A stretch of 64,000 nucleotides of DNA from Escherichia coli (lineage in GTDB: Bacteria; Pseudomonadota; Gammaproteobacteria; Enterobacterales; Enterobacteriaceae): assembly GCF_024298765.1 (NCBI RefSeq), contig NZ_CP101210.1; one strand, given 5' to 3'. The stretch's first letter is position 1. Every line of letters starts with the position of its first letter. This document shows positions 27,001-33,000 of this stretch, one piece after another. Position numbers: made by a program.

Positions 27001-30000
27001 GGTCACAACAATGAGGTTTTTATGAAAAAACTTATCGTTTCAAGTGTATTGGCATTCATAACATTTTCTGCGCAGGCCGCAGCATTTCAGGTCACTAGTA
27101 ATGAAATAAAAACAGGAGAGCAACTTACAACGTCTCATGTATTTTCTGGATTTGGGTGTGAAGGTGGTAATACATCGCCCTCATTAACCTGGTCTGGTGC
27201 TCCTGAAGGCACCAAAAGCTTTGCCGTAACTGTGTATGATCCAGATGCTCCTACAGGCAGTGGATGGTGGCACTGGACTGTTGCTAATATTCCAGCAACT
27301 GTAACATATTTGCCCGCTGATGCAGGAAGACGTGATGGTACAAAACTTCCGACTGGTGCTGTTCAAGGCCGAAATGATTTTGGTTATGCAGGATTTGGTG
27401 GAGCATGTCCTCCCAAAGGAGATAAACCCCATCATTACCAGTTTAAAGTATGGGCTCTAAAAACTGATAAAATTCCTGTGGATTCTAATTCCAGCGGAGC
27501 GTTAGTTGGTTATATGCTTAATGCCAATAAAATTGCAACCGCTGAGATAACACCAGTTTATGAGATAAAGTAGGGTAAGAGTATGCTGGCAAAAGATAAG
27601 ACTAACCTAAAGATTGAAGAAATACGGATGCATAAACATCATGAGATTCACAGGGTTAAGCCTCTTATGCCAGCTTTATGTCGTATCCGTCAGGGAAAAA
27701 AAGTTATCAATTGGGAGACGCATAGTCTAACTGTTGATAATAATCAGATAATATTATTTCCCTGTGGATATGAATTTTATATTGCGAATTATCCAGAAGC
27801 AGGTCTTTATCTTGCAGAAATGCTTTATTATCCCATTGATCTAATTGAAAAGTTTCAAAAATTTTATGCGATAACTGATCAAATTCGTAACACGACAGGT
27901 TTCTGCTTACCTCAGAACCCCGAGTTAATATATTGTTGGGAGCAACTAAAAACATCTATTTCCCGAGGCTTCTCAACGCAAATTCAGGAACACTTAGCAA
28001 TGGGCGTTCTACTTTCATTAGGAGCACATCATGTTAATTGTTTACTTTTATCAGATAGTAAACAATCATTAATAAGTCGTTGTTATAACCTAATGCTATC
28101 CGAACCTGGAACAAAATGGACAGCAAACAAGGTAGCGAGATATCTCTACATTTCTGTTTCCACATTGCATCGCCGTCTGGCAAGCGAGGGAGTAAGTTTT
28201 CAAAGTATATTGGACGACGTGAGGTTAAATAATGCGTTGTCTGCTATACAAACGACAGTAAAACCCATCAGCGAGATTGCCAGGGAAAATGGTTACAAGT
28301 GTCCTTCTCGTTTTACTGAAAGGTTCCATAATCGTTTTAAGATAACACCAAGAGAGCTAAGAAAAGCGTCCAGAGAGTAAAAGTATTTTATGAAGGAGCA
28401 ACAGCATCGATTTTTATTTTGGAAAATAAATACGGCATACTCAACCTATTGGAGTCTGAACAATCCGGTGACTTCTGCGCTAATCGGGGACGTTTCTAAG
28501 CACATATAATTGATACTATCTTCCTCCATCACAATTTCAGAAATGCACGTGTGATTTTTTTGCATCCGGCGTTTGGACTATGTGGAGCTCAAGAGTGGGA
28601 AAGTTACAAGAGGTTGAGGGGATAATTAAAGGGATGCTTATGACATTAGATATCCGGTTAGGTGCGGATATCGTTGTTATTAAATCTAGTTGATACGTTA
28701 AGATGCAGCTACTGACAAAATAGCCAGGACTCCACAAAACGCCTTTGTCGTAATACCTGACTGCAATATCTGGTCGATCTCGTCGCAGTAACCTACTCGA
28801 TACGCCTTTGAGGCTGTTTACCAGACTGGATATCGCCAGTTTGGGAGGATAGTTAATTAACAAATGGACGTGATCTGGTCCGCCATCCATTTCAACCCGT
28901 TCAGCTTCAAAATCAGCACATACATTTGAAAAGTAAGTGCGTAGTTTTTCTGTCGCGTCATGGTCAAAAATCTGACGTCGGTATTTAGAGCCTATCCCAA
29001 TAGGGTTTTGTTCCAGACAATGACACCACAGGCAAAATGCAGCATCGCCTCATAATTCTCGACCTTCTTCTCCCAACGAGTCAGGACACGGCGGTAGCGA
29101 TTCATCCAACTGTGTGTTCTCTCTACAACCCAGCGGTGAGCCTTAAAATCCGTGTATTTGATGGCCTCTGACTCATCCTTTCGTGACTGGATATGAGGTT
29201 CATAGCGACGACTTTTCAGATACGATTCCAGCCATTCCGCTTCATACCCTTTGTCCATGCACAACCGGAGCCTCTTGCCCGGTCTGCCCGTCTGGAGGGC
29301 ATCGAGCGTATCCGTAACCAACTTTATGTCGTGCGTATTTGCTCCGGCAACAACCAGTGCAAGCGGTAGCCCGTTCCCGTCAGTCATCAGACTGCGCTTT
29401 ACGCCCTGTTTCCCCCGGTCTGTAGGGTTCTTGCCTGTTTTTTTGAGCCTGCCAGCGGTGATTTGGTTATACAACCATCCATCGACAGCCACGACCAGTC
29501 AATAGAGTCCAACTGTTCGCAAGCAAGCAACCCATTTTACCAGAAGCGTTCAAATACTCCGGCATCTCGCCACTCCTGAAATCGGCGATGAGCAGAGCTT
29601 GACGAGCATATACCGGTGGCATTCAGCGCATTCCATTGGCAGCCCGTCCTGAGTACGAAGAAAATGGCGTTCATTGCAGCGCGATTATCAACCCGCTTGC
29701 GGTGCGTACCCAGCGGGTGTTGAGTTTTATGCTCCGGGATGAGTGGAGCCATTTTCTCCCAGAGTCCATCACTGATCTGCCACTTGTTGCCCGCCACACT
29801 TCGCCCTCAGAAATTATCATATTGTATTATCTGACAATTCCTTTTGGGATAGGTTCTTAGTAACGAAGACTAGGTGAACATGCTTCAGGAAAACACAATG
29901 CCTTCCGCGTCGGATATCGGTTTCTTTTTTCATAGGCCAAAGTATGATTTGGCCCATGAAACGACTACAGGCATTCAAATTCCGGTTAAGACCAGGTGGT

Positions 30001-33000
30001 CAACAGGAGCGTGAAATGAGGCGCTTCGCAGGCGCATGTCGTTTCGTTTTCAATCGTGCTCTGGCGCTTCAGAATGAGAATCATGAGGCCGGTAATAAAT
30101 ACATCCCTTACGGGAAAATGGCTTCCTGGTTGGTTGAGTGGAAAAATGCCACTGAAACGCAATGGCTTAAAGATTCGCCCTCACAGCCATTGCAACAGTC
30201 ACTGAAAGACCCTGAGCGGGCTTACAAAAACTTCTTCCGGCTTCGTCACCACGCTCAAACGGTGTGCTACCTATCGCGGCTATAAAAACAGCTTGTCCAT
30301 CAGCACGATAGATAAAATAAGGCTGCTTTTTGTCGCCTTCTTTTTTCCACTCAAACCAGCCATCGGCAAAACAGATTGCCCGACCATGTTGCCAGAGCGG
30401 TTTAAACATGTGACTGGTTGCGGCAGTTTCTACGCGGGCGTTAATCAGCGGCGGTTTATCCCACCATCCGGGAGCATATCCCCAGAAAACCGGATCCAGA
30501 TGAAGGTGTTCATCACGTTCACTGAGCAGAAGGACTTTGGTTCCCGGCGCGACGTTGTATCTGCCAATAGGTTCGGGATCGTAGGGAATATCGCGTTCAA
30601 TATCTTCCGCGAGAAGCGCAAGGTAATCTTCACGCGTTTGGGATTGGGCAAAGCGTCCACACATAGAAACCTCCTGAGGTCACACTGAAAAGAATAGGAG
30701 AGGGGGCGGGTTAAATCTATGTGATAGAGAGGCAACGATATTCCCGCTGTGGGCCACAGCGGGAATGAGGGATTACTTCTGAATTAAATAACGAATGGTC
30801 GGCCCGTCTTGCTGAATATCCAGCACCGTATAGCCGTGATTACGCGCATCCAGTGGAATATTATTGATCGACTGCGGACAGTCGCTCACCACTTCCAGGA
30901 TCTCCCCTTTTTTTAACTGCGGCATCGCCTCAAGGGTTGCGACTGCCGGATAAGGGCAGGGTTCACCCACCATATCAAGACGGTAATCAGGAACGATATT
31001 TTTCATGCGATCTCCTTAGCAGTCTGCGGTGCCGCACGGCGGAAGAAGCGTTTTTCCCAGCCAATAATCAACATTAGAGCAGCAAACAACAGCAAATATG
31101 TCACCAGCAGGCCGCCCATCGGGCCAAAGGTTTTCAGCAGGTTGATTTTGTCCCAGTCGGTGGCCAGCGCCGGAGCGAAATCATCCCAGTAGTACGCCAG
31201 AATCGTTGAGCCGATCACGTTGCCCAGACCGACCCACCAGTAGTGCACCTGGCCTTCTACCGCGCGGTACATCCAGCCGGTTTCGCAGCCGCCTGCCAGC
31301 ACGATGCCAAAACCAAACAGTAAACCACCAATTACCGCGTTTGGTCCCGCCCACATGATTTTGGGTTCAACGCCTAACTGTACGTAACTGAAGATCCCGA
31401 TGGCACTTACCGCCATACCGATAATGATTGCTTTCGCCATATGGGTACGTCCGGTGATCCACATATCGCGGAACGCCGAAGTAAAGCAGATTTGCGCACG
31501 TTCAATCAGTAAACCAAAGCCGACGCCAAACAGCATTGCCAGCCCCAGTTTGGGCTGGTTCATCGCCGTCAGCAGCGCCCAGCCCAGCAGGCCGAAAAAG
31601 ACCAGCATCCCGAGACGAAAACGACGCCGCGCCTGATCCGGTTTTTGCGTCAACGGTGAGGCAGCAGAAACTTTCTGCATTTTCACGGGAATACGGAAGA
31701 TGGGCAGAAGGGTAAAGCGCGCGCCAAACCATGAACCAATGGCAGTGGCGATGGCAAAGAACCAGGCGTGCAGCGAGAACTGTGGAATTCCGGTAAAGAA
31801 CGCCGCCAGGTTACAGCCCATTGCCAGACGTGCGCCAAAACCGGCGATAATACCGCCAATGATGGCCTGCATAATGCGGATACGGCTGCGCGGCATGCGC
31901 AGTTTGACATTGTTGGCCCACAGCGCTGCGGCAAAACAGCCGCCAAACATACCGAGGATCATCATTCCGTCGATGCGGGTTAATGGCGATCCTTCCAGAT
32001 GGATAATTTTAAAATAACCCCACTCTTCAGCATGGACGCCGAACAACTGCAGGAGCTGACCGCCCCAACGGGTAAATTCACCTGTGACAGCCCAAAAGGT
32101 GCCAGTGATGCCAAAATAGTAAGTGGAGAGAATACCCGCCGCGATGACCGCGGGGATGGGCGCCCAGAATTTAATCAACCAGGCGTGTTTGAATTGCTGC
32201 CATGACATGAATGTAGCCTCTGAACTCAGAAGGTTTGAAACAAGAGTCGCGAATCATACACCATGCAAATTTATTTTCGGGGTAATAATTCACAAAAATA
32301 ATGGTTAGATCAAATTTCTCTCTGAACCTGGAAAGGCTGGCGACATCAGGGCTTTAATGCCACAATCCTCTTTTCTTCTCATGCAGGACGAATGATGAAA
32401 AAACTCGCAATTGCAGGTGCGCTCATGTTGCTGGCGGGCTGTGCCGAAGTCGAAAACTATAACAATGTCGTGAAAACCCCCGCGCCGGACTGGCTGGCGG
32501 GCTACTGGCAGACCAAAGGGCCGCAACGTGCGCTGGTCAGTCCGGAAGCGATAGGCAGCCTGATTGTCACTAAAGAGGGCGATACCCTCGATTGCCGTCA
32601 GTGGCAGCGGGTGATTGCCGTGCCGGGTAAATTGACATTGATGTCTGATGATCTCACTAACGTTACCGTAAAACGTGAGCTGTACGAGGTTGAGCGTGAC
32701 GGTAACACCATTGAGTACGATGGTATGACGATGGAGCGTGTGGATCGCCCGACGGCAGAGTGTGCCGCCGCGCTGGATAAAGCGCCGTTACCGACGCCAC
32801 TGCCGTAATGAAATCTCCCCGGCTTGCCGCCGGGGATGAATTTAAATCACCTCTTCGATAACCCACACGCTGACGCTGCCGCCGTTGCAAAAGAAGGTCG
32901 CTTCGCCGTTTTCTTCGGTCACTACGCTCTCTTGCCGGTTCCCCAGAAAATCACGCCAGGTTTTATTGCCGTAATTCTCTCCCAGATGAATGGTTTTTTC

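Follow-up and report, generated by a model that had tools for sequence, protein, structure and literature searches.

An IS609 remnant abutting a truncated yedK: a probable insertion-deletion scar shared by many Escherichia coli genomes

The stretch of Escherichia coli DNA analyzed here (the window; 64,000 nucleotides of contig NZ_CP101210.1, assembly GCF_024298765.1) is a chromosomal segment comprising flagellar region III and yedDEFK. Within it, the 5' part of a tnpB gene from an IS609 insertion sequence (IS) runs directly into yedK, an accessory DNA-repair gene on the opposite strand that has lost its 3' part. We interpret this arrangement with considerable confidence as an inert scar from three successive events, namely the insertion of IS609, deletion (in one or more steps) and the later insertion of an IS5-family element. 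IS609 belongs to the IS200/IS605 family and carries divergent tnpA and tnpB genes.

Three-way alignments place the switch between the two sequences at 30237-30239 (...CTTCTTC[C]GGCTTCG...), where the IS side reads ...CTTCTTCC and the yedK side CGGCTTCG.... By base-by-base alignment against full-length IS609 and K-12 yedK, either parent could have supplied the C at 30238, a microhomology of a single nucleotide. On one side lies the tnpB (insQ) remnant (29956-30238, + strand), with codons 1-94 of 402, and on the other the yedK remnant (30664-30238, - strand), with codons 1-142 of 222/223. A first-pass annotation made from the sequence alone had the TnpB and YedK homologies, of about 95 and 142 residues, both stopping at about 30240. 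Its suggested check, alignment with intact yedK and a full-length IS element, puts the breakpoint at 30238, within two bases of that estimate.

The undeleted counterpart is preserved in numerous relatives, where the first-pass annotation had advised looking for it. Among the 5426 complete E. coli genomes to which all counts here refer, ybcM, tnpA, insQ/tnpB at its full length of 402 aa and intact yedK are found together in 996, namely strain 2013C-4282 and 995 others (the query for the undeleted form was a chimera that joined the left flank and the remnant from the window to the 3' part of tnpB lost there). In the locus of 2013C-4282 (L005), our reference for this arrangement, IS609 occupies 5047-6806, and yedK (223 aa) lies at 6801-7472 on the opposite strand in convergent orientation. 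Immediately left of this element stand the 17 bases that follow yedK in K-12 (ATAATCTCCAGGCTTAT), and on its right lies the 3' end of yedK (CAAACAGGTTG...); the left flank thus identifies a simple IS609 insertion between GGCTTAT and CAAACAGG. The insertion point lies after TTAT, between bases 2 and 3 of the yedK stop codon, and the insertion adds one C-terminal Cys to YedK (giving the 223 aa). A comparison of the K-12 copy with three full-length insertions of independent origin defines the ends of IS609 as CCGGTGCGCC, directly following TTAT, on the left and GGATGTCAA or GGAGGATGTCAA on the right, with TTAC in place of TTAT at one plasmid copy. In the window both subterminal ends, including the left one abutting TTAT, are missing, whereas the undeleted relatives and K-12 have both.

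The window and the reference locus align as a series of colinear blocks (window 27001-28712 with L005 2802-4513, 28705-28986 with 5174-5455, 29857-30238 with 5454-5835, and 30227-33000 with 7036-9808), between which the window lacks 660 bp and 1211 bp. The right gap, L005 5836-7046, comprises 971 bp of IS609 and 240 bp of yedK, and removes tnpB codons 95-402, the omega-RNA/right-end region and yedK codons 143-223 (81 codons). That it is one contiguous gap bears out the first-pass proposal that a single deletion took the 3' part of tnpB, the right end of the IS (where an omega-RNA would lie) and the yedK 3' end. As causes of this deletion we considered and rejected direct repeats at the breakpoints, since 17% of 5000 random breakpoint pairs reach an equivalent score, and an imperfect inverted repeat of 17 nt lying immediately outside the two breakpoints, equaled by 6.7% of random pairs. 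Given that the breakpoint similarity is not above random (p ~0.17 for direct and ~0.07 for inverted repeats), we infer an illegitimate, essentially homology-free joining. The same structure might be ascribed to an already truncated IS609 fragment that inserted in the middle of yedK, in keeping with a published table (PMC6963479) and with the way the remnant abuts an internal yedK position. We consider this highly improbable: the yedK 3' part is absent rather than displaced to the far side of the fragment; transposition of IS200/IS605 elements depends on both ends, neither of which is left; and simple deletion from a complete IS609 sitting at the yedK stop codon, between the same flanks, accounts for the structure.

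The left side of the element has suffered a separate deletion. Overlapping BLAST segments and the sequence itself place its junction at 28705-28712, an 8-bp microhomology (GCAGCTAC). The 660 bp lost (L005 4514-5173) lie between two copies of this octamer in the undeleted form, only one of which is left in the window, and consist of 533 bp of flank plus the IS609 left end with the 3' end of tnpA (IS609 nt 1-127). Instead of a complete Y1 (HUH) transposase, the window retains two pieces of tnpA on the - strand, separated by the IS5-family element. The middle piece, at 28705-28986, covers codons ~25-119 of 138 by tblastn and is 97% identical in nucleotides to the IS609 of 2013C-4282. The 5' piece (~codons 1-27), together with the divergent tnpA-tnpB intergenic region, lies at 29857-29955 as judged from tblastn and a partial feature of the Prokaryotic Genome Annotation Pipeline (PGAP); TnpA residues 1-30 match 29933-29844 in tblastn. 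By nucleotide similarity these remains are IS609: 28705-28984 is 97% identical to nt ~118-397, and 29860-30240 94% identical to nt ~401-781, of the K-12 element, which is annotated as 1748 bp with a yncK pseudogene and insQ.

Of TnpB itself, the window keeps only the N-terminal helix-turn-helix domain. The open reading frame (ORF) at 29956-30285 (+), which reads on from tnpB into antisense yedK up to a stop at 30285, matches the Pfam profile HTH_OrfB_IS605 (1-47/47, E=2.3e-16) and neither the RuvC-like nor the zinc-ribbon domain of a full TnpB. In tblastn, residues 1 to ~94-97 of full-length IS609 TnpB align at 29956-30246, and the nucleotide identity to the IS609 copies of K-12 and 2013C-4282 is 94% up to 30238. 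The RNA-coding part at the tnpB 3' end and right end is gone as well, and the window between 28000 and 31200 yields no Rfam match at E<=1. In the undeleted L005 copy, sub-threshold Rfam matches to HgcC, sot0042 and RAGATH-18 are seen at the tnpB 3' end, and the segment L005 6634-6817 at the IS609 3' end folds stably (z=-3.6). HgcC and sot RNAs are transcripts from tnpB 3' ends (PMC4615843), and it is plausible that L005 6634-6817 encodes an omega-RNA, for which the yedK 3' end would serve as guide. Because the window's IS609 copy has lost its ends, the nuclease and the RNA, and its tnpA is broken, it should be dead, capable neither of transposition nor of producing a guided nuclease.

Another reading is that the elements themselves provoked the deletion, through cutting of the yedK 3' end by TnpB and its omega-RNA after excision, followed by faulty repair, or else through an adjacent deletion by the IS5-family element. 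The guide of the L005 IS609 would indeed match the yedK 3' end (CAAACAGGTTGAATT...), and the IS5-family element is close by. However, one breakpoint falls within tnpB, at codon 94, away from either IS end and from TTAT; the guide target in the occupied site is not preceded by TTAT; and the IS5-family element, which older copies of the junction lack, lies 382 bp away from it. Hence, a deletion driven by either element appears very unlikely.

The IS5-family element is 868 bp long (28988-29855, - strand) and is recognized by the Pfam domains DUF4096 and DDE_Tnp_1. It is flanked by a TTA target duplication and has imperfect terminal inverted repeats; its transposase is split into two frameshifted ORFs, with an internal stop according to PGAP. 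Full copies occur in only 94 of the genomes, and it thus marks a small sub-lineage. Its insertion is later than both deletions, since strains W5-6, ST131 (sequence type 131) 5506 and O104:H4 FDAARGOS_349 have both junction 60-mers exactly and lack the element. A 47-nt exact match to its end also occurs in strain AGR4587 (L012 2501-2547), with pilV on one side and a type III restriction gene on the other, and is possibly a solo IS end; the pilV/restriction-modification region in which it sits is unrelated, and the match was discounted.

The first-pass annotation had judged YedK to be probably inactive, and the residues lost with the 3' part support this. Homology to K-12 YedK stops after Ala142: residues 1-142 align at 30664-30239 with 96.5% identity (tblastn). 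The reading frame then continues antisense to the tnpB remnant for 23 unrelated codons to a stop at 30167, giving a product of 165 aa. This ORF (30167-30664, -) matches positions 1-138 of 214 of the SRAP profile (Pfam, E=8.8e-34). The stub (MCGRF...) retains the N-terminal catalytic Cys2 as well as Asn75, Glu105 and Trp106. It lacks the rest of the SRAP domain, about a third of the fold, and with it Ile147, Thr149, His160, Asp161, Arg162, Pro164, Arg206 and Asn210. In a crystallographic and isothermal titration calorimetry study of YedK, the T149A and R162A mutants did not bind single-stranded DNA (ssDNA), His160, Arg206 and Asn210 were found to contact DNA, and the missing residues other than Thr149 and Arg162 were each reported to contact DNA or the thiazolidine ring (PMC6821365). 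With Thr149, His160 and Arg162 lost, and T149A and R162A unable to bind ssDNA, the truncated protein is almost certainly inactive and would no longer cross-link to abasic sites, a loss that would extend to roughly one fifth of sequenced E. coli. Two lineage-specific substitutions, R85H and P125A, are seen in the stub; Arg85 is among the residues probed by alanine mutagenesis in the ssDNA-binding table of the same study (PMC6821365). A compensating second yedK-like gene is uncommon at the nucleotide level, with a median of one yedK-like place per genome and ~190 extra places overall in a blastn 'distant' search; distant protein-level SRAP paralogues were not searched.

The scar is by no means confined to one strain. 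The exact right junction is present in 1110 genomes (1137 with a 1-kb query) and the left junction in 1195. The yedK 3' part is present in 4254 genomes and absent from 1172, near-full-length yedK is found in 4260, and 49 have no yedK-like sequence whatever. The right-junction 60-mer recurs exactly in strains 104, W5-6, ST131 5506 and O104:H4, and the left-junction 60-mer is likewise exact in four other genomes. Over 6.1 kb, ST131, O104:H4, W5-6 and strain 104 are 99.4-99.9% identical to the window, as opposed to 97-98% for the undeleted haplotype; this near-identity, together with the exact junctions, points to a single origin. The join could also be taken for an assembly or sequencing artefact, or YedK for naturally short here. 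Only the abruptness of the switch speaks for such a reading, and we accord it next to no probability: the identical junction in 1110 independent complete assemblies is not an artefact, and a natural isoform is contradicted by an SRAP profile cut at position 138 of 214 and a 23-residue tail made of antisense tnpB sequence. Beyond what the first-pass annotation held, it emerges that the element is IS609, inserted at the yedK stop codon and not inside yedK, that there was a separate 660-bp deletion on the left, and that the haplotype is widespread and old rather than strain-specific.

In sum, IS609 entered an ancestor with the emrE-ybcL-ybcM island between fliE and yedK, directly 3' of the TTAT that overlaps the yedK stop codon, placing tnpB and the right end convergent with yedK. 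One 1211-bp deletion, the extent of which is given by the difference between the haplotypes, then took the RuvC and zinc-ribbon parts of tnpB, probably by illegitimate joining at the 1-nt microhomology. In the same haplotype, a 660-bp deletion between the 8-bp repeats took the left end and the tnpA 3' end, and in the window's sub-lineage the IS5-family element later landed in tnpA.

Certain observations weigh against this history. First, the tnpB remnant is only 94% identical to the undeleted copy, versus 97-98% for the flanks. The IS609 piece of the window departs from its undeleted counterpart at 22 places, 18 of which fall in 29857-30010, and half of these clustered differences match the IS609 variant of an IncI2 plasmid (L004). 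Such clustering within 150 nt, with half of the changes shared with another variant, led us to reject pseudogene decay as the cause of the higher divergence; the pattern instead suggests a mosaic or converted IS609 sequence. It also implies that the ancestor's IS609 copy was not identical to the present 2013C-4282 copy. Second, no single-deletion intermediate was seen among the top-ranked hits of a chimeric query designed to favour the left deletion with an intact right side; all of these hits were the fully undeleted form, matching in two pieces. The two deletions may accordingly have come in either order or as one complex event. Third, the loss of YedK activity is carried over to the truncation from published point mutants.

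An independent truncation of yedK is found in strain WB61 (L007 3575-4108), where 178 codons remain 246 bp from fliE and the whole island is gone. This, and the near-identical haplotype in distant lineages (ST131, O104:H4, ST648-type and avian strains), could be read as a sign that YedK loss is neutral to advantageous and that the haplotype spread by recombination. We hold this to be doubtful; if true, it would provide a natural population-scale knockout for the effects of SRAP cross-linking on mutation spectra and abasic-site tolerance.

As such, the scar is ordinary, already known in the form of annotated pseudogenes and of little intrinsic importance. In all genomes inspected, the two stubs carry PGAP annotations as partial pseudogenes; in strain 104, whose locus is 100% identical, those 'missing C-terminus' correspond to window 29956-30246 and 30239-30664. 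One practical point is its frequency: ~21% of complete E. coli genomes, including representatives of ST131 and O104:H4, are without full-length yedK. Conclusions drawn from K-12 YedK are therefore not species-wide, and natural null strains are at hand for comparison. We found no paper on the population frequency of yedK loss. The scar is also mislabeled by annotation pipelines: in genomes without the IS5-family element, a chimeric 174-aa 'tnpA' is called intact (PGAP, WP_015674555.1), while the tnpB stub receives no name beyond 'helix-turn-helix domain-containing protein'.

The gene order around the scar is fliE (+), emrE, ybcL, ybcM (+), tnpA in two pieces (-) split by the IS5-family element (-), the tnpB stub (+), the yedK stub (-), yedF, yedE (-) and yedD (+). 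The fliE-yedK interval (window ~26600-28700; emrE, ybcL, ybcM and downstream sequence) is an island swap relative to K-12: the emrE-ybcL-ybcM segment is DLP12-prophage-like, and K-12 has yedL, yedN', yedM and intG' at that place, with the boundary of the swap ~20 bp downstream of the yedK stop codon. Elsewhere in the window, dgcQ (yedQ, encoding a diguanylate cyclase; 10858-12552) has an in-frame stop at codon 312, annotated likewise in strain 104; the fliA and fliI pseudogene flags of strain 104 are absent from the window.

Four known arrangements provide points of comparison. The first is the IS609 of K-12: the remnant is 94-97% identical to its nt ~118-779 with the same divergent tnpA/tnpB layout, and the undeleted relatives share its ends and TTAT target; in contrast, the window copy lacks both ends, tnpA codons ~120-138, tnpB codons 95-402 and the 3' RNA region, and has a foreign IS in tnpA. 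Second, 2013C-4282 and the 995 other genomes have the same flanks (fliE-emrE-ybcL-ybcM ... yedK-yedF-yedE) and the same position and orientation of IS609, but retain both segments that the window has lost (660 bp left, 1211 bp right) along with an intact yedK. Third, in relation to the YedK/HMCES SRAP sensors of abasic sites, residues 1-142 remain 96.5% identical to K-12 YedK, whereas residues 143-222 have given way to 23 unrelated ones. Fourth, the 28Eco12 remnant listed in PMC6963479 has a length of 664 bp, which fits a remnant of IS609 nt ~118-779 without the IS5 insertion, and judged from this length it is very probably the same allele as that of the window. That study describes it as an insertion, whereas our comparison shows an insertion at the stop codon followed by deletion.

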